The notes: generated from the sequence alone by a model not told the origin. A DNA stretch of 55,247 nt from an archaeon (GCA_030612665.1 JAUWNL010000003.1:1-55247), one strand, 5' to 3'; counted from the stretch's first letter, positions 28,561 through 54,056 are shown. Numbers and translations: made by a program.

Positions 28561-29385
28561 TTACCTAAAAACAATTCCAGCATAACCAACAGCAGTATTA
28601 TAATCCCCAGAAATATCTCCACTTGTATAATAATCAATGAGTTTGGCTTGCCATTTTTTGATTTTAGCTATTTCACTTAAAATTGTTATTCCATATATCC
28701 CACAAACAGTTGATTTTTCAGCTAAACTGTAGAAACCTTTAGAATCATTCTTTGAAATTTCAAGAATCATATTATTATCTAATCTAAACAGGTTTTCCTT
28801 AACATCCTTACTAAATGGAATAAATCCATATGAAGCACCATAATGAGTAAAATCAGATGAAACAATAATTGCTTCGTTAACAATAATCTCAGAAAGAATC
28901 CCAGCAATTTTCTTACAATCTTCATAACTTAATCCACCCAAGATAATAGAAACAATTTCAAATTTTTTCTGGCTAAGTTGTAAAAAAGGAAGCTGAACTT
29001 CAATACTATGTTCAGATTGATGAGCCTTTTCATTGACCTCAACAACAATCCTCTCTTTTTCCAGCTTTTTCATAATTCTCTCACTAAGACTTTTATTACA
29101 TTTGACAATTCCTAAAGGTGTTTCAAAATTCTCAAGACTAAAACATACTTTCGAGCCAATCCCAGAATGATTAACTCCCAAAATAATAAAATCTTTTTTA
29201 TTAGGAATCAAGCTAAATGTCTTGCCAGCAAGTTTCCCAGAAAACATGTATCCAGCATGTGGAACAATCGCAGCATGAACATTCTCCCTTTTACCAGAAC
29301 CAAGAAACTTCTCAACTTGTTTCTTTAATTCATCCTTGTCCGCAGGATAAAATTGACCTGCAACAATTGGTTTTCTCATAGTCAT
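28561..29385 (-). CDS. MEMO1 family protein (AmmeMemoRadiSam protein B)
   Basis: RKPIVAGQFYP, PHAGYMFSG, EHSIEVQLPFLQ, SSDFTHYG, VGYAG. Confidence 0.94.
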   Translation of the reverse strand: MTMRKPIVAGQFYPADKDELKKQVEKFLGSGKRENVHAAIVPHAGYMFSGKLAGKTFSLIPNKKDFIILGVNHSGIGSKVCFSLENFETPLGIVKCNKSLSERIMKKLEKERIVVEVNEKAHQSEHSIEVQLPFLQLSQKKFEIVSIILGGLSYEDCKKIAGILSEIIVNEAIIVSSDFTHYGASYGFIPFSKDVKENLFRLDNNMILEISKNDSKGFYSLAEKSTVCGIYGITILSEIAKIKKWQAKLIDYYTSGDISGDYNTAVGYAGIVFR

Positions 29386-29407
29386 GCAAAATTAAAAGAA
29401 AAAGCAA

Positions 29408-29860
29408 TTAAAAACATTCCTGTTTATCTGCATCAAGAAATAATTGATTCATTCTCCGGCCGAAATTCCAATCTAACATTGCTAAATACATCTTATCTTC
29501 GGGGATATATTTTTCATATGGTAATCCAGACATCTTAGCAATTTCTTCCGATACAAAAAGTCCTGAAGTCAATTGAACTGGTTCTAAGAAACGGTCTATA
29601 AAACTTATTTTTCCATTAATTGGATGAATGAATACTTCTCCTCCAATTTTATTAATATACTCCCCCAAATGGTCATTATTAGAAAGAAGATGATATTTTA
29701 ATGGAATCCCAATTTGGAATAAACGTGGAGCATCTTTCCATTCTTTTTTAGGAAAAACAGTTATTGGACAATAGCATAAACTATCTCTTTCAATGATTTC
29801 TCTAAAAAGTGATTCAATTCTCGAAAAATCTTTTCTTAAATATATCTCAGATTCTTTCAT
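29408..29860 (-). CDS. Hypothetical protein
   Basis: 150-aa ORF, ATGA-coupled to upstream ORF. Confidence 0.6.
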   Translation of the reverse strand: MKESEIYLRKDFSRIESLFREIIERDSLCYCPITVFPKKEWKDAPRLFQIGIPLKYHLLSNNDHLGEYINKIGGEVFIHPINGKISFIDRFLEPVQLTSGLFVSEEIAKMSGLPYEKYIPEDKMYLAMLDWNFGRRMNQLFLDADKQECF

Positions 29861-30228
29861 TTTTTTCTCAATCTTTTTTCAACTTTAGTAACATAATTTT
29901 CTGATCCATTAAGCCCAGTATCTTCTGTATCTGGAAAATAACCTTCTCTTTTGAATTCAGCTTCTCTGAAATCAGGAAAATCTTCTAATAGTTTATAATA
30001 AATCTTATACATTTTGTCTTCAATTCTAGCTTTTTCTAGTGTTTCTTGATCAGTTTTTCCTAGACTAGCCACATGAATAATATATGCCATTAAATTACCA
30101 ACAATATGATGATAATGTGTGAATTTATCTGAAACTCCAAATCTTTTTGGAAATTCATTTATCATCTCACGCCAGTGCAGCTCTTTCTGTTTAAATTCCT
30201 CAATAATCTTTTCTAATCCAGTTACCAT
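29857..30228 (-). CDS. Hypothetical protein
   Basis: 123-aa ORF with TATA box upstream. Confidence 0.6.
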   Translation of the reverse strand: MVTGLEKIIEEFKQKELHWREMINEFPKRFGVSDKFTHYHHIVGNLMAYIIHVASLGKTDQETLEKARIEDKMYKIYYKLLEDFPDFREAEFKREGYFPDTEDTGLNGSENYVTKVEKRLRKK

Positions 30229-30258
30229 AGAAATTGTCCTAAGAATGATTTTATAAAC

Positions 30259-30309
30259 TTATTGTTTTACTTCAATCTTCTTAATTCCCATCTCCTTCAA
30301 CTGGGCTTT
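30259..30309 (-). pseudogene. Relic copy of cca 3' end (KAQLKEMGIKKIEVKQ*)
   Basis: Matches intact cca C-terminus KSQLKEMGIKEIKEVK* at 31725-31775. Confidence 0.85.
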
Positions 30310-30310
30310 C

Positions 30311-31522
30311 TTAAAGCAATAACCATTTCCAAACTGGTCGCACAATCAACTTTTTGCCCCCAACCAAGAACTCATCTTCTTGATTAAAAGTCAAAATTAA
30401 ACCCTCACTTAAACTAAACCTCTTTAAAGCATTTACTAATCCTTCTATTTCCCTGTCTTTATTTTCTTCAGTTAAATCAAAACAAACTTGAATTGCCCCA
30501 GTAATTTTATCTTTTTCTTTGACTACAAAATCACATTCATTTTTTTCCTGAAAATAAAAAATATTTTTGAATCTTCTTCTCAAGCCTAAGAAAACAGCAT
30601 TTTCTAGCATCTTTCCTTTATCCTTTGAGAAAGAAGCAGAATTTGCATAAGAGAAGCCATTATCAATTGAATAGACTTTTTTTGGATTTACTTGTTGCTG
30701 CTTGTATGAATAACTAAATCTTGGGATTGTGAATATTAAATAAGAATTCTCGAAATGAGATATATAATCAATAACACTCTGAACTGACTTGATTTTAAAC
30801 ATCTTCTTTATAGAATTATAAGAGAATTCTTTTCCTACATTGCTAATGAGATAAACTGCAATTTTGTTAAGTACATCTGTATTTTTTATGCCAAACCTGA
30901 CAGCAACATCTTTCATAACTACATCTGAAAGCAGCTCATGATTAATAGCAGGATCATCTTTTTTCAGATATTCTGGAAAACCTCCTTTGTTCAAATATTC
31001 CTCGAAAGATTCTGCTGACGGCCTCTTCTTTTTCATATCCAAAAATTCCCTATATGAAAATGGAAATAATTCTAACTGTAGGTGCCTGCCAGTCAGTTTT
31101 GTTCCGAGCTCAGTGCTTAACAGAGAGGCATTAGAACCTGTTATCAAGACTTTTTCCTTTTTGTCAATCAAATATCTTATGAATTTCTCCCATTTTTTAA
31201 TGTTCTGGATTTCATCAAAAAAATATATTCCTCCTTCACCATATAACTCTTTCATTATCTGCTCGGCTTTGTTAAAATCAGAAAGCTCAAAATCCCCCAA
31301 TCTGGGGTCTTCAAGATTGAGATAGCAGCCTCTTTTCTGTTTTTTTAAAATCTGGTGGAGAAAAGTGCTTTTTCCACATCTCCTTATTCCTGTAATCAAA
31401 AGAGCAAAGGAGTCCCTAATTTTAATGTCTTTTATTTTCTCTCTCAAAATGCCAAGATCTAATCTGTTTAAAGACTCTCTTTGCGCAAGTATTACTTCTT
31501 TAAGCATGTCACGTGTTATCAT
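30311..31522 (-). CDS. AAA_14 / DUF4143 ATP-binding protein
   Basis: GIRRCGKS, FFDEIQ, ITGSNA, LTGR, GGFPE, ENAVF, ECDFV...IQVC. Confidence 0.92.
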   Translation of the reverse strand: MITRDMLKEVILAQRESLNRLDLGILREKIKDIKIRDSFALLITGIRRCGKSTFLHQILKKQKRGCYLNLEDPRLGDFELSDFNKAEQIMKELYGEGGIYFFDEIQNIKKWEKFIRYLIDKKEKVLITGSNASLLSTELGTKLTGRHLQLELFPFSYREFLDMKKKRPSAESFEEYLNKGGFPEYLKKDDPAINHELLSDVVMKDVAVRFGIKNTDVLNKIAVYLISNVGKEFSYNSIKKMFKIKSVQSVIDYISHFENSYLIFTIPRFSYSYKQQQVNPKKVYSIDNGFSYANSASFSKDKGKMLENAVFLGLRRRFKNIFYFQEKNECDFVVKEKDKITGAIQVCFDLTEENKDREIEGLVNALKRFSLSEGLILTFNQEDEFLVGGKKLIVRPVWKWLLL

Positions 31523-31553
31523 AGGATTATAGTGTTCATAAGATATATAAATC

Positions 31554-31595
31554 TTTCTATTAGCAGTAGAAACTATTTTCTATTTAGAATAGAAA
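31554..31595. promoter_or_regulatory. Two TTTCTA-N7-TAGAAA palindromic boxes upstream of the ATPase
   Basis: 31554-31572 and 31577-31595, adjacent to the TATA-like element. Confidence 0.55.
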
Positions 31596-31724
31596 CTTTA
31601 ATCTCCAGAGAAAATTTAGAGCTGAAGTGATTGAAGTGACAGAGTTGTAAGAGAAGTTCGCGCCATTTTCCAACAGCTTATAAGAAAGTCAATTAAATCA
31701 ATCTTCTTCTTTCTCTCACCTATC

Positions 31725-32984
31725 TTACTTCACTTCTTTTATCTCCTTTATCCCCATTTCTTTGAGCTGACTTTTGGGAATTCTCCTAATGAGTTTTTTC
31801 ATATCAAAAATCTTTCTCTGTGCTTTAGCATATAATCTCTTGTTCTTTACAAAGGTTTTTTTCCATGTTTTTTTGAATTTCTTAATATGTTTTTCAGGGA
31901 TATTCAATGGAGGCCCAGCAATAACATAATTTTTTTCTGGTTCTTTGTAAATAAAATAAAATTTTGCTTCTAGATTTTTCTCAGAAAATCCAAAAATACT
32001 TCTTATAACTTTAAAACCATTTTTTTTAAGAATAAATTGCAGATATTCATAGAATTTCCTTGTTTTGCTACCAGCAACATCAACTTTCTTTTTTAATGTA
32101 GTAACTTGAATTGTCACAAATTTTGCTTTGTTTCTCTTTGTTTCTTTCTTTAATGCTTCAATGTTTATTTCATGTTTAAAAAAATATGATTCTGAAGATC
32201 TTTTCAAGTATTTTTTGGCGACTTTAATAAATTTTTCAAGTGTCTTAAAACTAAGAGCAGCTGCAGCATTCCTATCTTTCTGAACAGGATCAATAAGAAT
32301 GATTGGTGAATGAAGTTTTGCTTTGTTTAATGAATGCATTACTTGTGCTTTGCTTGAATAATATTTCTTAGGATCAATAACTATTTTTTCTTTTCCATTC
32401 CATTTTGTCATTGCTCTTAGGAACTTCATGAATGAGCCATAATAACAAACAAGAACTTCAAGAACATAACCACTAAATCCGCGGATGTAGGATTCAGCTC
32501 CATAACAATCAGCACTATAGCTAAATGCCTTGGCAAGCCTAATTTCATCAGCAAGTTTCTTATTCTTTTTTATCTTACTTAGAATATAAGTGACATGAAG
32601 AGGCGAGACATCAGTAATATTTACTGCTTCTTCTGCTTTCTTGATTTTAAGTATTGGAACTAATTCAATTGTAATTTTATTGATTTTGACTTGAAAATAA
32701 TCCCTAGAACCATGAAGTCTTATTGCCTTGATTTTATGTTTTTTTAAAATCTTGCTTAGAAAATCAGCAAGTTTATGGCTCTGCTTAGCCATCTTATAAG
32801 GAAACATGACAAAAACATCCACATCATAACCTTTATCTCTCTTGACAAGAGTTTTCTTGGCATAACTTCCTCCAATAAAAAGTTCTATTCCTCTGCCTTT
32901 AATCTTCATAACTCTGTTTAGAGCTTCTTTTATCTCATCAAGATCTTTTTTCTCAGGCCTTATTTTTTCAAATACTTTTTTCAT
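31725..32984 (-). CDS. cca: CCA-adding enzyme (archaeal class I)
   Basis: GGSYAKKT...DVDVF, DVSPLH, YGAESYIRGFSGY, IDPVQKDRNAAAAL. Confidence 0.93.
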   Translation of the reverse strand: MKKVFEKIRPEKKDLDEIKEALNRVMKIKGRGIELFIGGSYAKKTLVKRDKGYDVDVFVMFPYKMAKQSHKLADFLSKILKKHKIKAIRLHGSRDYFQVKINKITIELVPILKIKKAEEAVNITDVSPLHVTYILSKIKKNKKLADEIRLAKAFSYSADCYGAESYIRGFSGYVLEVLVCYYGSFMKFLRAMTKWNGKEKIVIDPKKYYSSKAQVMHSLNKAKLHSPIILIDPVQKDRNAAAALSFKTLEKFIKVAKKYLKRSSESYFFKHEINIEALKKETKRNKAKFVTIQVTTLKKKVDVAGSKTRKFYEYLQFILKKNGFKVIRSIFGFSEKNLEAKFYFIYKEPEKNYVIAGPPLNIPEKHIKKFKKTWKKTFVKNKRLYAKAQRKIFDMKKLIRRIPKSQLKEMGIKEIKEVK

Positions 32985-32986
32985 AC

Positions 32987-33400
32987 TTATTTCAACCCCT
33001 TTTTAATTATATAAATTAATTCCTTTATATCTTTTTCTAATTCTTCTGTAATTGAATGGAAAACAATTTCATCATCTATACTGCCATACTCATGAGCAAT
33101 TATATTTCTCATACTCTTTGCGTCTTTAAGTTTTTCTGTAAGTTCAGACGAAATTATTTTATTTTGTAAAAGAATATCAAATGCATGTAAATCACTTTCT
33201 GGAAGAGATAACCTTCTTTCTTTAATAAATAAAAATGTTAAATCAATTACTGCTTCTATAATTATTTCAGCATATCTCTCACATGCAGCTTTTGCCTTTA
33301 AATCGTGAATATATTCTTTTAGATTAATTGGTCTTATTTCATTAAGTTCAGATAAATATTTTTCTATATCTTTAATTTTATCTTTAATTCTTTCGTTCAT
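32987..33400 (-). CDS. HEPN/DUF86 (HepT-like) RNase toxin
   Basis: RNIIAHEY = RX4HXY motif; start MNERIK. Confidence 0.9.
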   Translation of the reverse strand: MNERIKDKIKDIEKYLSELNEIRPINLKEYIHDLKAKAACERYAEIIIEAVIDLTFLFIKERRLSLPESDLHAFDILLQNKIISSELTEKLKDAKSMRNIIAHEYGSIDDEIVFHSITEELEKDIKELIYIIKKGLK

Positions 33401-33890
33401 ATAAAACTTTCCCCTTATTATCAATTTCTTTTTTTATTTTATCTGGAAGAATATTATAAACCTGTATTTCTATTTTTTTGTTTACTTTTCTTAAAATATC
33501 TAATCTAAATTGCATAGCTTCTTTTTTTGTAATTTGAAAAAATTCTACTGCAAGGTCTATATCAGAAGATAAAGTTAACTGGCGTTCTACTATTGACCCA
33601 AACAAAATAATTCTTTTTATTCTTTTGAAATATTTGCTTTCTAGAATAACTTCTTTTGCTTCGGAAATCATCTCTTTGATTATTGCTCCATGTTTGAGTT
33701 GAAAATCCTTAACAAATGGTGCAAGTGCATTAATTGCTTCAAACTTTTTTCTTATATCTCGAGAAAGCCTTGTTTTTTCTGAAGCTTTCAAACTCACTCC
33801 AAGCAATTGCTTCTCAATAATCTTTAACTCTCTCTTTCCAAATATTTTCCTTAGATTTTCGTCCTTTTTAACAACACTTAATAAATTCAT
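33384..33890 (-). CDS. Minimal nucleotidyltransferase (MNT/MntA-like) antitoxin with N-terminal extension
   Basis: LFGSIVERQLTLSSDIDLAV = GSX10DXD; overlaps HEPN gene. Confidence 0.9.
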   Translation of the reverse strand: MNLLSVVKKDENLRKIFGKRELKIIEKQLLGVSLKASEKTRLSRDIRKKFEAINALAPFVKDFQLKHGAIIKEMISEAKEVILESKYFKRIKRIILFGSIVERQLTLSSDIDLAVEFFQITKKEAMQFRLDILRKVNKKIEIQVYNILPDKIKKEIDNKGKVLYERKN

Positions 33891-33895
33891 TTTAT

Positions 33896-33932
33896 TATCT
33901 CCATTGTGATAATAGTTATCAGCATAGCGATA
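33896..33932. promoter_or_regulatory. Two TATC-N8-GATA boxes, putative MNT-HEPN operator
   Basis: 33896-33911 and 33917-33932, between the TATA box and the start codon. Confidence 0.5.
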
Positions 33933-33939
33933 TATTTAA

Positions 33940-33999
33940 ATCTTTCTTTTCTGGCCTTATTTTTTCTAATACTTTTTTCATTTCAGTTTCTTTTCTCAT
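33940..33999 (-). pseudogene. Relic copy of cca 5' end (MRKETEMKKVLEKIRPEKKD)
   Basis: 38/42 nt identical to 32943-32984 (MKKVFEKIRPEKKD); retains GAGGT RBS at 34003-34007. Confidence 0.88.
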
Positions 34000-34111
34000 A
34001 TAACCTCAAAAGAATTGAAATTTAAAAAAGCTTGGTTATTCTCTTAATTATACTAACGAGTATATTGCCAAAAAATATTTAAGATAAGAATTTCTTTTAT
34101 TTTATATTAAA

Positions 34112-34897
34112 ATGACAAACTTTCATTTTGGTCCTGCTGGTCTCGGTGGTGTTAAAGAAGCAATTGGAAATCTTGAAAGATACAAGAAATTAGGTCTTGA
34201 TGCCTGTGAAATTGCTTTTACTTATCAAGTTTATATAAAGAAAAATTCTGATGCCAAAAAGATTGGCAAGGCTGCACAGAGGTTAGGAATAAAGCTTAGT
34301 ATTCATGCTCCTTATTATATTAACCTCGCAAGTAAAGAAAAGAAAAAGATTGAGGCAAGCAAAAGAAGAATTCTTGATTGTTGTGAGAAAGCTCATTGGC
34401 TTGGAGCAGATTATGTTGTGTTTCATGCAGCTTATTATAGTGGCAGGAATGAACAAGAAATTTATGAAATTGTCAAGAAAGAAATAATTGATATGCAGAA
34501 AATTATTAAACAGCGAAATTGGAAAGTGAAACTTTGTCCTGAAACAACTGGCAAGAAAAGCCAGTTTGGCTCGCTTGATGAATTGCTTAGACTTGCCAAA
34601 GAAACAGGATGCTTTTTTTGTGTTGATTTTGCTCATCTTCTTGCACGTGATGGAAAGATTAATTATGATTCAGTTTTTGGAAAGCTAAAAAATCTTGTGC
34701 ATATTCATTCTCATTTTTCTGGAATAGTTTATGGCAAGAAAGGTGAACAGAGACATGTTGTTACTGATAGTGAGAAACTTTTGCAATTGCTGAGATTTGC
34801 CAAGAAAAATCATGTCAAAGACATTACAATTATTAATGAAAGTCCTGATCCTGTTGGAGATTCAATTAAGGGCCTGAAGATGGCTTCTAAACTGTAA
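34112..34897 (+). CDS. nfo: Endonuclease IV-like TIM-barrel (AP endonuclease family 2)
   Basis: FGPAG, SIHAPYYINL, VFHAAY, PETTGKKSQFG, VDFAH, NESP. Confidence 0.88.
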   Translation: MTNFHFGPAGLGGVKEAIGNLERYKKLGLDACEIAFTYQVYIKKNSDAKKIGKAAQRLGIKLSIHAPYYINLASKEKKKIEASKRRILDCCEKAHWLGADYVVFHAAYYSGRNEQEIYEIVKKEIIDMQKIIKQRNWKVKLCPETTGKKSQFGSLDELLRLAKETGCFFCVDFAHLLARDGKINYDSVFGKLKNLVHIHSHFSGIVYGKKGEQRHVVTDSEKLLQLLRFAKKNHVKDITIINESPDPVGDSIKGLKMASKL

Positions 34898-35112
34898 TTT
34901 TTCTTTATTTTCCTTTTCCGACGCTATTTTTACAAGTTTTTCTTGATATTATTAGTTACCACTTGTGTTGGGTAACAAATAACCGAACAATAGAAAGCTT
35001 TATAAGGCATTATCACTTGAAAATAGCAACACATTTTTAGTTTACATGAACTCCATGCAGGCTAAAAAAATTATAAAAAATTAAATTAAACTAAAAAACA
35101 AAAAAACAAAAA

Positions 35113-50703: not shown

Positions 50704-52500
50704 ATGGTGATTGATATATCTACTATAGCTAGTTTTTTTTCAGGAATTCTTTCAGCTCTAGGTACAGCTTTTTCTTCATTTTCTTCTGGAGTTTCATCTC
50801 TACAAATTTTACTTTCCCAGCTTCCTGAGAGCCAGGCTGTATTGATTAGTATAGGATTAATTATTATTGTTGCCGCTTTCTTTGCCTTGGTTATGAAATC
50901 TCTTAGACAAGAAATGATTCCCGCATATATTATTGCCGGCCTGATAATCGGCCCTCTTGTTCTTGGTTTGGTGAAAAATACAATTTTGATTTCAGTTTTT
51001 GCTGAGATTGGAATAGCTTTCTTGTTGTTTGTTGCTGGACTTGAAATTAGTATTTCAAAATTAAAGGAAACTTCTCTTGGTTCTGTACTTGCTGGATGTT
51101 TTCAAATTGCAATAATTGGCGCAGCAACTTTCTTTATTTCTCAGGCTCTAGGCTTTTCTTTGATTACAGGGATTTATCTTGCCTTAATTTTATCATTTAG
51201 CTCAACTATCCTTGTTATCAAATTACTTGCAGATAAATATGAAGTTAATACCTTACATGGCAGAATAATCATTTCAATTCTTTTGATACAAGATATTGTT
51301 GCAATCTTTGCTCTTGCTTTACTTTCAAAGGAATTTTCTTCATACTTTATTTTTATTGCTCTAACAAAACTGGTTTTAATGTTATCATTTGCTTTTATTT
51401 TAAACAAAACTGTTCTTAAGCCTTTATTCAAATTTTCCTCAAAATCCCCAGAATTATTATTTATTGTTGCTATAGCTTTCTTATTTTTATTTGCTGCTTT
51501 CTCATACTTATTAGGCTTTTCAATTATTATTGGTTCTTTTATTGCAGGTCTTGCTCTAGCTAATTTACATTATAAAACAGAGATAGAATCAAAAATCAGA
51601 CCTCTTCGTGATTTCTTTGCAATCATATTTTTCGTGTCACTTGGAATGTTGCTTACTTCATTTAATATTATACCTATTATTATTCCATTCCTCATTTTCC
51701 TTGCTCTTGTTTTAATTGCCAAACCATTGATTATTGCATTTTTTGTAAGAATCGTAGGCTACAAAAGAAGAACAAGTGCTTTGACAGGATTTGGTCTTGC
51801 TCAAATATCCGAATTTTCATTGATTCTTGCATTCCAAGGTCTTCTTTTAGGAATGTTAACACAAGAAATATTTACAATTGTTGTCCTTATTGCTATAGTC
51901 AGTATGGGTTTAACTCCTTATTTTATCAAAGGAAGCATGACACTCTATTCAAAGACAATCGGGTCATTATGGCTCTTAGACAAACTGCCAACTTTCAGAG
52001 AGAAAACAAGATACAAGGGAGAAAAAAAGAAAACTGTCCTATTGATTGGTTGCCACAGGATGGGTTCTATATTTTTGAAAAAACTTAAGAAATACCATCA
52101 CAAAATCCTTGCTGTAGATTTTAATCCTGAAATTATTAAATCTCTTGAAAATAAGAATATCTCGGCGATTTATGGAGACATCTCAAATACAGAAATTTTA
52201 AATCACTTACCACTTAAAAGACTTAGGGTTGTTATTTCAACTATTCCAAGAAAAGAAGATAATCTTCTTATAATAGGTTATTTCAAAAAATTTTGGCCAA
52301 GAATTTTTATTGTAGTGACTGCACAGAATATTGATGGGGCTCTTGAAATGTACAAAGAAAAAGCTGACTATGTTATGTTGCCACTGATTACGACCGCTGA
52401 AATGAGCGTAAATATGATTAAGAAATTAAATAAATGGCAATTTAGGAAATTAAAAAAAGATCATATAAAATATCTAAGAGAACTGAAGAAAGAGATCTAA
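50704..52500 (+). CDS. CPA2/Kef-type cation:proton antiporter with TrkA-N domain
   Basis: AYIIAGLIIGP, SFSSTI, LLIQD, LAQISEFS, IGCHRMG, IYGD. Confidence 0.92.
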   Translation: MVIDISTIASFFSGILSALGTAFSSFSSGVSSLQILLSQLPESQAVLISIGLIIIVAAFFALVMKSLRQEMIPAYIIAGLIIGPLVLGLVKNTILISVFAEIGIAFLLFVAGLEISISKLKETSLGSVLAGCFQIAIIGAATFFISQALGFSLITGIYLALILSFSSTILVIKLLADKYEVNTLHGRIIISILLIQDIVAIFALALLSKEFSSYFIFIALTKLVLMLSFAFILNKTVLKPLFKFSSKSPELLFIVAIAFLFLFAAFSYLLGFSIIIGSFIAGLALANLHYKTEIESKIRPLRDFFAIIFFVSLGMLLTSFNIIPIIIPFLIFLALVLIAKPLIIAFFVRIVGYKRRTSALTGFGLAQISEFSLILAFQGLLLGMLTQEIFTIVVLIAIVSMGLTPYFIKGSMTLYSKTIGSLWLLDKLPTFREKTRYKGEKKKTVLLIGCHRMGSIFLKKLKKYHHKILAVDFNPEIIKSLENKNISAIYGDISNTEILNHLPLKRLRVVISTIPRKEDNLLIIGYFKKFWPRIFIVVTAQNIDGALEMYKEKADYVMLPLITTAEMSVNMIKKLNKWQFRKLKKDHIKYLRELKKEI

Positions 52501-52565
52501 AGAAAGAGATTTAATTGATAATCTAGCTGATTATCTATCTGATTATTATTTATTAGTTGATGATA

Positions 52566-54056
52566 TTAGTTGATGACAATTGCCTTTGAATCTTTAAAGA
52601 TTTTTTCTGCGTAATTCAATTTTCTTTTATTTTCTGAATAAATTGTAGCAATTATATCATTCTTTTTTACAAAATCTCCGACTTGCTTATGAAGATAAAT
52701 GCCTGCTCTTTTGTCTGCAGGACATCCAGCGACTCTTGCAACAAAATTTATTTTTTTATTATTCATTTCTTCTATCTTGCCATGTTCTTCTGCAATAATT
52801 ATTTTTTTGAAATTAGCTAACCTTAATTTTTCATTTAAATCTCCAAAGTTTCCGTGCTGTGCCTTTATAATCTCCTTGAATTTTTCAAGAGCTTGCCCTG
52901 AATTAAGGATATATGAAGCAAGCCTTTTACCATGACCTTTTTTTGTTTTTCCAGCAAGTTCAAAGATTAGCCCAGCAAGAACAATTGCTTTAGCCTCGAG
53001 ATCTAAAGGTCTTGATTTTTCTCTTACAAGAACTGCAAGGATATCTCTCATTTCAAGAACAGGGCCTATTCCTTTTCCTATTGGTTGATTTCCATCTGTT
53101 AATGCTATCATGATTTTTAGTCCAAGAAGGGTTGATATTTTATGGAATTTTTTTGCAAGTTTTTTTGCTTGTCCAAAATTTACTTTTGCTCCTTTTCCAA
53201 AAGGAATATCAAGTAAAAAATGAGTTGCACCAACTGAAACTTTTTTTGCAAGAATCGAAGCAATGAGTTGTGCCTGAGGGTCAATACCCATTATCCTCTC
53301 TACTTGTATTATTTTATCATCTGTAGGTGCCAAGCCAAGAGAACCACCCCAGACGAGACATGCATTATTCTTATTTACTATTTTTTTAATCTCTTCAAGT
53401 GAAAATTCTACATTGCATAAAGTTTCAATAACATCTGCAGTTCCAGCAGCACTTGTTATAGCTCTCGATGATGTTTTGGGCATCACGAGTCCTGTGGCAG
53501 CACAAATCGCAATAACAATCGGAGTAGTCCTATTTCCTGCTATTCCTCCAATACTATGTTTGTCTATAATCATCTTTTTATTTAAATCAAGAATTTTTCC
53601 AATCTTGACCATCGCATTGGTTAGTGCAATTGTCTCATTATCATTCATTCCATAGACATACATTCCAGAAATAAAATAAGCAATTTCAGTTTCAGTTAGA
53701 GAATTTTTATATATATCCTTCATTATAGAAAAAATTTCAGTATAACTGAGTTTTTTTCCTTGCAGCTTTTTCAAAATAAAATTAGTACTTAAAGGTTTTA
53801 ATGCTGGTTCAATATCTACTAAAGAATCTTCTCTTAATCTGAGTTTCTTGAAAATTTCATAAGAAACAACAATTTCATCTTCTTTAAGAATGCCTGTTGC
53901 AATATCAACAATTGAAATTATTTCTTGATGATCTTTTTTCTTTCTTATAGCTACTCTTTCTCCAGAATGAACATCTAGTTTTTGAGAAACTTTTTGATGA
54001 ATAATTGCTACAGGACGACCTGCCAAAAATTTTAAAGATTTTACTTTTAGTAACAT
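52566..54056 (-). CDS. AMP phosphorylase (thymidine phosphorylase family)
   Basis: DKHSIGGIAGNRTT, KTSSRAITSAAGTAD; N-terminal extension typical of AMP phosphorylase. Confidence 0.92.
   Translation of the reverse strand: MLLKVKSLKFLAGRPVAIIHQKVSQKLDVHSGERVAIRKKKDHQEIISIVDIATGILKEDEIVVSYEIFKKLRLREDSLVDIEPALKPLSTNFILKKLQGKKLSYTEIFSIMKDIYKNSLTETEIAYFISGMYVYGMNDNETIALTNAMVKIGKILDLNKKMIIDKHSIGGIAGNRTTPIVIAICAATGLVMPKTSSRAITSAAGTADVIETLCNVEFSLEEIKKIVNKNNACLVWGGSLGLAPTDDKIIQVERIMGIDPQAQLIASILAKKVSVGATHFLLDIPFGKGAKVNFGQAKKLAKKFHKISTLLGLKIMIALTDGNQPIGKGIGPVLEMRDILAVLVREKSRPLDLEAKAIVLAGLIFELAGKTKKGHGKRLASYILNSGQALEKFKEIIKAQHGNFGDLNEKLRLANFKKIIIAEEHGKIEEMNNKKINFVARVAGCPADKRAGIYLHKQVGDFVKKNDIIATIYSENKRKLNYAEKIFKDSKAIVIN

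Follow-up and report, generated by a model that had tools for sequence, protein, structure and literature searches.

Two accessory cassettes and relics of both gene ends at the cca locus of a DPANN-type archaeon

Results

Organization of the cca locus

The window analyzed here is a stretch of 55,247 nucleotides (GCA_030612665.1 JAUWNL010000003.1:1-55247), contig C4 of the assembly of a DPANN-type archaeon (668 kb in 41 contigs, 30% G+C, 84% complete; genome G000). Its minus strand carries a complete gene for a probable archaeal class I CCA-adding enzyme (cca; 31725-32984, 419 aa), which lies between a MntA-HepT toxin-antitoxin pair and a DUF4143 ATPase, and each of these two accessory cassettes is bordered on its outer side by a short relic of the corresponding end of cca. 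The live cca gene was recognized by the Pfam domains tRNA_NucTransf2 (8e-33, score 113.5) and CAA_C (25.4), both above their cut-offs, and by the archaeal cca equivalog TIGR03671 at 269.7 bits, just below the cut-off of 281.3. It is the single tblastn match in the 668-kb assembly, and the nearest cca proteins are labelled Pacearchaeota in their source records.

Read along the minus strand from 34000 to 30259, the order is as follows: the upstream region and codons 1-14 of an old cca, MntA-HepT, 2 nt, the complete cca, about 120 nt, the ATPase control region, the ATPase, 1 nt and the cca 3' relic. The 3' relic (30259-30309) comprises 16 codons and a stop codon, reads KAQLKEMGIKKIEVKQ, and is separated by a single base (30310) from the ATPase stop. 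It would be the orphan end of an earlier allele and, of the two repeat copies on either side of the ATPase cassette, it is the right-hand one; its live counterpart is the last 17 codons of cca (31725-31775), which read KSQLKEMGIKEIKEVK. An initial annotation, made from the sequence alone, had reported this relic and its match to the live end, and both the position and the peptide match were confirmed by translation and alignment. The 5' relic (33940-33981, MKKVLEKIRPEKKD) corresponds to codons 1-14 of the putative earlier allele and was placed by alignment to the live end (32943-32984, MKKVFEKIRPEKKD). The old cca upstream region is still present in front of it, and an in-frame ATG lies ahead of it at 33999.

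In the 3' pair, 34 of 48 aligned bases are identical (71%), with one codon gap in a repeat of 51 nt and a longest identical run of 5 nt. The 5' pair shares 38 of 42 bases (90%), with a longest identical run of 14 nt. The local alignment score of the latter was 64, as compared with a mean of 19.3 (SD 2.8) for shuffled sequences, and none of 500 shuffles scored as high, which upholds the 5' relic that had also been proposed initially. The motif QLKEMGIK, found in both copies of the 3' end, is common to cca C-termini across the family, and the 3' relic is thus a true cca end. A genome-wide scan with the terminal peptides recovered both relics, and copies were found only beside cca.

We considered the possibility that the relics belong to an expressed family of small open reading frames, or that the junctions are artefactual. 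The relic frames are indeed open, the 3' relic having a stop codon and the 5' relic a start codon of its own. Yet their peptides match cca termini family-wide, the genome scan placed them nowhere but next to cca, and the frame offset from the ATPase stop to the relic differs among loci, so that no conserved read-through product exists. Furthermore, both junctions are spanned, at about 98-99.6% identity, by Logan contigs of four sequencing runs from two studies (X1, the possible source, from one, and X2-X4 from the other), which excludes an assembly artefact. Populations that include this strain occur in cold seeps and marine sediment. This explanation as a whole is therefore left with a minimal probability. 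Among the contigs compared, none joined across the block and no run lacked it; the joints that were listed have sides of 21-35 nt with low likeness and look like noise, and this result does not show that such molecules are absent.

Relic and live ends of cca appear to come from two functional alleles

Within QLKEMGIK, five of the eight codons differ between the relic and the live gene (TTG/CTC, AAG/AAA, GAG/GAA, GGA/GGG and ATT/ATA), and all five differences are synonymous, in agreement with the initial annotation. When the two pairs of the window were taken together, 11 codon differences were synonymous and 3 non-synonymous, and the base differences were distributed as 3, 1 and 13 over the first, second and third codon positions. 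A change at random in these codons would be synonymous 19-25% of the time, and P is about 0.001 even if 35% is assumed. Both relics have kept all family-conserved residues. Because the differences are mainly synonymous and at third positions, the comparison of sequences indicates that the relic and live ends derive from two functional cca alleles, and not from a local duplicate that has decayed.

The opposite view, that a target-site duplication gave identical copies at the time of insertion and that these then diverged in place, the relics by neutral decay and the live ends by constrained drift, would agree with the 90% identity still found in the 5' pair. It would also agree with the perfect or near-perfect repeats of L068 (42 nt), L115 (152 nt) and L123 (32 nt), which surround related cassettes and are what a fresh duplication would give. 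If this were the case, however, a decaying relic should have accumulated mostly non-synonymous changes, whereas 13 of the 17 base changes concern third positions and every family-conserved residue has been kept; neutral decay, as had been argued at the outset, would not give this pattern. Repeat lengths of 32-152 nt are also unlike a fixed enzymatic stagger. We consider this view quite improbable. A combined scenario may apply, in which a duplication came first and the live gene was later exchanged, by ordinary recombination, for a diverged allele; this merges into the explanation that we prefer below.

Family cca genes that are 72-78% identical overall have ends that are 58-83% identical. On this scale, the 3' pair looks like a difference between genera and the 5' pair like a closer one. 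Tail residues were counted by eye over 16 residues, which is too short for a test: the live tail IKEIKEVK is nearer to other genera of the family (13/16 to L009) than to its own clade (at most 10/16), and the relic tail IKKIEVKQ is typical of the clade (12/16 to P0003 and P0004).

Over its whole length, the live cca protein is 69-75% identical to the metagenomic proteins P0002-P0005 and 57-62% identical to those of other genera of its GTDB family; orthologs were found in 56 of 61 relatives. Both the relic and the live termini resemble the termini of the P0002-P0005 clade, and the cca alleles involved should therefore be close kin. In one of the two options given initially, the whole block was foreign. 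This description needs to be qualified: the two cassettes have their closest relatives in other families (see below), whereas the live cca falls within the organism's own clade.

The MntA-HepT cassette

Upstream of cca, hepT (32987-33424) encodes a HepT-type HEPN RNase toxin, identified with Pfam HepT-like (4.7e-27) and NCBIfam HepT_toxin (99.2 for a cut-off of 60); its true start is likely the ATG near 33400. The preceding gene (33384-33890, 168 aa) encodes a MntA-like minimal nucleotidyltransferase (MNT) with an N-terminal extension, the antitoxin partner, which matched Pfam Polbeta (4.9e-14; 52.7 for a cut-off of 26.9) and scored 42.2 with NCBIfam MntA_antitoxin, below the cut-off of 60. 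The two reading frames overlap, as in type VII toxin-antitoxin HepT-MntA systems. The best matches of MntA in other families are 74% (in family f8), 72% and 64% identical, and the genome's own second copy is 61% identical; the nearest MNT relatives are in families f8 and f3.

The left border of the cassette (33891-33945) is made of the promoter AAAGATTTAAATATA, which we take to be a BRE/TATA element, and of palindromic operators. This block begins exactly at the 5' junction, and 12 other MNT homologs have it at the corresponding upstream position. At the junction itself, the microhomology AAAGAT(TTA) is common to the cassette promoter and to codons 12-15 of cca; the 3' junction could not be placed with single-base precision.

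Two candidates for further sequence features of this cassette were rejected. In this genome, the 21-mer GAAAAGAAAGATTTAAATATA is confined to the upstream regions of the two MNT genes, as an attachment site might be, but its last 15 nt are the cassette promoter found at the 12 other loci, and the other 6 nt are uninformative. Ahead of the second MntA-HepT pair, on contig C20, neither a cca-like nor a DUF357-like relic was significant, with 419 and 64 of 500 shuffles, respectively, scoring as high.

Three side observations concern these genes. The 13-mer ATGAGAAARGAAA occurs three times in the genome, upstream of each MntA-HepT cassette (33987-33999 in the window; C20:2692-3817) and at the start of a DUF357-like reading frame that follows the HepT gene of C20; in its alignment test 12 of 500 shuffles scored as high, and the tests were not significant. 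At locus L040 (G042:C81), the promoter motif GAAMCAAAAGGTTTAAATAT recurs (19/20) roughly 100 nt past the HepT stop. In genome G293 of family f9 (contig C19:1315-5615), a MntA homolog (58%) and an ATPase homolog (62%) are 2.6 kb apart on one strand, in the order opposite to that of the window.

The ATPase cassette

Downstream of cca, the ATPase gene (30311-31522) combines AAA_14 (3.5e-36, 124.5 bits) with DUF4143 (2.9e-21, 76.3 bits), both above the Pfam cut-offs, and belongs to the PADLOC candidate defence family PDC-S01 (COG1373; PDLC04787, 6.4e-111, residues 26-402). DUF4143 is listed among PD-(D/E)XK nuclease families (PMC3424549). The closest relative of this ATPase, 77% identical, is in family f9, and its subfamily, defined by E<=1e-90, occurs in 48 of 356 f9 genomes and, within the organism's own family, in 1 of 23. 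The reading frame ends in WKWLLL and its stop. The idea that the protein had been clipped by 2-4 codons at the junction was withdrawn: relatives end 1-6 residues past WKWLL, and L109 also ends in WKWLLL followed by a stop.

The control region of the cassette (31543-31602) contains imperfect palindromes of the TTTCTATT..AATAGAAA type, including the inverted repeat I1 (31547-31572/31577-31602), and is conserved upstream of related ATPases. blastn of the spacer showed this for L068, L069 and L090, and similar palindromes are present in L115, L118 and L127. Neither terminal inverted repeats nor a conserved left-end motif were seen in ATPase cassettes.

Between the live cca stop and this control region lies a spacer of about 120 nt (31603-31724), for which no match was found in any fetched locus or in the rest of the genome, and no Rfam family. 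It is unlike the 30 nt that follow the stop of the relic, and may be the 3' flank that travelled with an imported cca end. The Rfam search, which covered 29000-35000, gave only a sub-threshold 'skipping-rope' match within the ATPase reading frame (27.3 bits for a gathering score of 36.7).

Similar scars flank related cassettes at other genes

Flanking direct repeats were sought by aligning the 150 nt downstream of the ATPase stop against the 900 nt upstream of its start and comparing the result with shuffled sequences (z>8). Outside the present genome, 10 of 47 testable ATPase loci had such repeats, of 32, 32, 37, 42, 46, 53, 80, 86, 95 and 152 nt; those of L068, L115 and L123 are the perfect or near-perfect ones mentioned above. 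Where the repeat is coding, it corresponds to the 3' end of the upstream host gene, as with a thioredoxin-like CPTC protein (L118) and a P-type ATPase (L127). Among 12 loci, 8 have a right repeat that starts between -4 and +11 nt from the ATPase stop, and in 4 loci the stop codon is inside the repeat.

An array of this kind is present on another contig of the same genome (C16:28257-33556; L097:2258-7557), with the order gene953-R-ATPase-R-ATPase-R-ATPase, in which R is the last 9 codons (MRKSQKMRF and stop) of the upstream gene for a beta-helix surface protein. The three ATPases are 38-45% identical to one another, and the three differences among the R copies are all synonymous. The MntA-HepT cassette was flanked by repeats in 2 of 27 other testable loci. 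At one of them (L045), MntA-HepT lies between two copies of the 5' end of an AP-endonuclease gene, with 3 differences, all synonymous. When the eight coding repeat pairs were pooled, 29 codon differences were synonymous and 14 non-synonymous, and the base differences fell 10, 7 and 37 times on the three codon positions.

As a control, the same test was applied to 256 genes of this genome encoding at least 250 aa. The positives were the C16 ATPases and three other genes only: a Fic/DOC protein (C17:2559-3803, L152; repeats of 91 nt, 86% identical), an archaeal ATPase_2 protein (C19:26435-28078, L153; 93 nt, 94% identical) and a PNP_UDP phosphorylase (C41:56890-57819, L154; 49 nt, identical, with a third copy at 67%).

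Further details were noted at these loci. The C16 array also holds an HTH-nucleotidyltransferase/142-aa pair, its units being separated by four copies of a 36-nt repeat that are 75-100% identical to the reference copy, and its ATPase stop codons overlap the ATG of the mini-frame MRKSQKMRF. In L075 (G030:C15; 1169-1335 and 2816-2961), two nested repeat pairs (42 nt, 90%; 30 nt, 87%) surround the ATPase in swapped order, and may record successive insertions. Tandem or neighbouring paralogs of the DUF4143 ATPase adjoin the best-matching copy in L123 (G219:C23), L111 (G278:C3) and L119 (G197:C60), and arrays like that of C16 may be common.

Proposed separate recombination of the two cassettes onto cca

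We favor, as the most probable account though by no means a certain one, that two cassettes lacking an integrase recombined separately onto the two ends of a resident cca, and that each brought a replacement for the end that it displaced. The MntA-HepT cassette, with its own promoter, would have brought cca codons 1-14 behind HepT, and the ATPase cassette, with its own control region, the last 17 codons of cca and the flank of about 120 nt ahead of the ATPase. The resident first 14 and last 17 codons would have been pushed outwards as orphans, and cca would have stayed whole because each cassette arrived with a replacement end. The mostly synonymous differences between live and relic ends would be explained by the origin of the spare end from another functional cca allele. 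Host recombination could have achieved this through a crossover anchored in cca homology combined with a microhomology join at the far end, or through a crossover, single or with overlapping arms, with DNA in which the cassette and the gene end were already combined. Both cassettes have a patchy distribution, with their nearest relatives in other families.

Two insertions or the replacement of a block had been left as alternatives by the initial annotation. In the second, a foreign MntA-HepT-cca-ATPase fragment from a related archaeon would have been swapped in one step for the interior of the resident cca through two illegitimate joins, with both resident ends left behind. One donor would then account for both homeologous ends; both joins do look illegitimate, with the microhomology described above on the 5' side and no shared core on the 3' side, and the whole 3.6-kb block is fixed in the four runs. 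Yet neither the four-gene order, nor cca next to either cassette, was found in any of 29 cca loci of relatives, 52 ATPase loci and 33 MNT loci, and either cassette by itself is associated with this scar at other genes. These two facts make two events likelier than one four-gene block. The nearest relatives of the cassettes also differ (f8 and f3 for MNT, mainly f9 for the ATPase), the two pairs of ends are unequally diverged, and the live cca is closest to its own clade. A single replacement is thus unlikely, and of the two options first put forward, separate insertions are preferred.

Integrase-mobilized elements that carry a surrogate gene end could also be considered, the integrase acting in trans or having been lost. 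In islands of the tRNA/tmRNA or dusA type, the end borne by the element keeps the target whole and the displaced end is found at the far border. The combination of a restored and a displaced end recalls this architecture, repeats of 36-51 nt in several loci resemble archaeal att sites, and the C16 array could be taken for tandem accretion at a single site. Unlike such islands, the cassettes described here contain one or two genes in 1-1.5 kb, with neither an integrase nor an identical core. By Pfam, no recombinase is present among the genes of the block (ATPase, cca, HepT and MntA), and the 84%-complete assembly has one PF00589 recombinase gene, on another contig. The longest identical runs leave no identical core in the 3' pair (5 nt, as against 14 nt in the 5' pair), and repeats extend up to 152 nt elsewhere. 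Nor do the targets share a sequence: the C16 repeat R and the cca relic were tried as a common target motif and rejected, since 1369 of 2000 shuffles, and 1158 of 3000 66-mers drawn at random from the genome, scored as high. Site-specific integration is accordingly a very improbable explanation.

Several points weigh against separate recombination of the two cassettes. No flanking repeat was detected in 37 of the 47 ATPase loci and in 25 of the 27 MNT loci, and the coincidence of the right junction with the ATPase stop in independent loci is not accounted for. With 71% identity and no run above 5 nt, the 3' pair offers too little for homologous or site-specific recombination between the present copies. 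The difference in divergence between the 5' and 3' pairs (4/42 versus 14/48; Fisher P=0.03, marginal) fits two events without proving them. Since no genome has cca beside either cassette, no donor of the imported ends can be named. An empty site for the perfect 42-nt repeat of G045 was not found in G035, a genome of the same genus in which gene order differs. Scans of metagenome and genome collections for relatives of the live cca with DNA context gave 1 and 5 loci, all at 41-44% identity, and among these there was neither an empty site nor a 'native' cca allele free of interruption; for this reason, we infer the insertion and its direction from the present arrangement.

If the cassettes entered as we propose, cca has probably lost its own promoter and is read from that of mntA, since the hepT stop is only 2 nt before the cca ATG. 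This co-transcription is inferred from the arrangement of the locus, and so are the donors, the way in which recombination took place and which event came first. Loop-out of either cassette would be unlikely because the repeats have diverged (longest identical runs of 14 and 5 nt), and the accessory genes would therefore be locked onto an essential gene.

Discussion

Insertion with long target duplication is a process reportedly described for restriction-modification gene units by Nobusato and colleagues in 2000. In the survey of Furuta et al. (2010, PMC2853133), a restriction-modification unit without transposase or integrase is found between direct repeats of the target, longer than 30 bp and variable in length, some of which extend over the 3' end of a host gene. 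No mechanism is established there, although the authors suggest that the cargo breaks DNA, and no archaeal case passed the selection of that survey. The cca locus is similar in that the insert has no mobility genes and is bracketed by repeats of cca sequence which, at 51 nt (3') and 42 nt (5'), are both longer than 30. It differs by its cargo, a PDC-S01 ATPase-nuclease and a type VII toxin-antitoxin pair, and by its DPANN-type host. Moreover, its repeats are homeologous and synonymously diverged, whereas those of restriction-modification units are near-identical, and both ends of one essential gene are affected.

A second parallel is offered by T6SS, Rhs and CDI loci, in which displacement of the 3' end leaves orphan ends and has been attributed to homology-facilitated illegitimate recombination (HFIR; Kirchberger et al. 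2017, PMC5361080). As described for Rhs and T6SS loci in that report, incoming DNA finds its anchor in the conserved part of a resident gene, introduces a new 3' end together with cargo and shifts the old 3' end downstream, and repeated events build arrays, which may be compared with that of C16. The present locus likewise has a complete cca frame with a new end, and the old end beyond the cargo, in mirror order at the 5' side, and the ends come from what appear to be different functional alleles; the anchored crossover with a microhomology join proposed above would be of this type. In contrast with the Rhs and T6SS loci as described, the displaced ends here belong to a housekeeping gene and are functionally equivalent, unlike variable toxin domains, cargo and host gene are unrelated, and the 5' end has undergone a mirror-image displacement as well.

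In a Campbell-type single crossover, a circular molecule that contains a short stretch of a host gene integrates by homologous recombination and this piece is duplicated on both sides, the gene remaining intact only if the piece includes the gene end. The cca locus departs from this scheme: no circular form was seen, and the 3' repeats (71%) are too diverged to have recombined as they stand. As compared with the known systems, our observations place the scar in DPANN archaea as well and associate it with a toxin-antitoxin pair of type VII, both ends of one essential gene being affected.

The movement of stand-alone defence and toxin-antitoxin genes without a recombinase is an old open question, long target duplication having been described since 2000 without a mechanism. 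The cca locus is unusually informative in this respect: two unrelated cassettes sit at the two ends of an essential single-copy gene, and the relics are fresh enough to point to the origin of the spare ends from another allele. It suggests a route, host recombination using a portable gene end, and a way in which accessory genes could lock onto essential genes in very small genomes. It also carries a warning for annotation, as short in-frame copies of gene ends beside PDC-S01 or MNT-HEPN genes would be insertion scars and not small genes.

A wider reading can be put forward only tentatively, and we doubt that all of its parts hold together. PDC-S01 ATPases, and less so MntA-HepT pairs, might be widespread mobile cassettes devoid of an integrase, whose 3' terminus is defined and coincides with the end of the last reading frame, settled on the ends of conserved and even essential genes. 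The spare end would serve as a portable homology arm for re-insertion, by host recombination, into the same gene of distant relatives across DPANN families, and the PD-(D/E)XK domain may make the initiating break. Such cassettes would be practically undeletable, because the essential gene is cut from its own promoter or bracketed by diverged repeats.

A possible old position of cca and the neighbouring genes

Beyond the 3' relic, the minus strand reads orf123, orf150, Memo and aIF5B. In the same family, 18 of 20 cca loci are beside a CPA2 antiporter gene, an AMP phosphorylase gene or both. In the present genome these two genes (50704-52500 and 52566-54056) are adjacent, with 65 nt between them (52501-52565) and no cca; either cca was cleanly lost from there or it was never there in this lineage. 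Direct adjacency of cca and Memo was found in 3 of 9 loci from other families, and in the same-family genomes listed in both searches Memo is on the cca contig, mostly about 3-5 kb away. Judged by this synteny, the site of the relic beside Memo is plausibly the old position of cca.

The orf150 region, between the cca relic and Memo, varied among the sequencing runs. One contig of run X2 has 494 unrelated nt in place of the 479 nt of the window at 29381-29861, both flanks matching, and contigs of run X1 diverge at 29826 and 29858. From these two observations, orf150 occupies a strain-variable slot.

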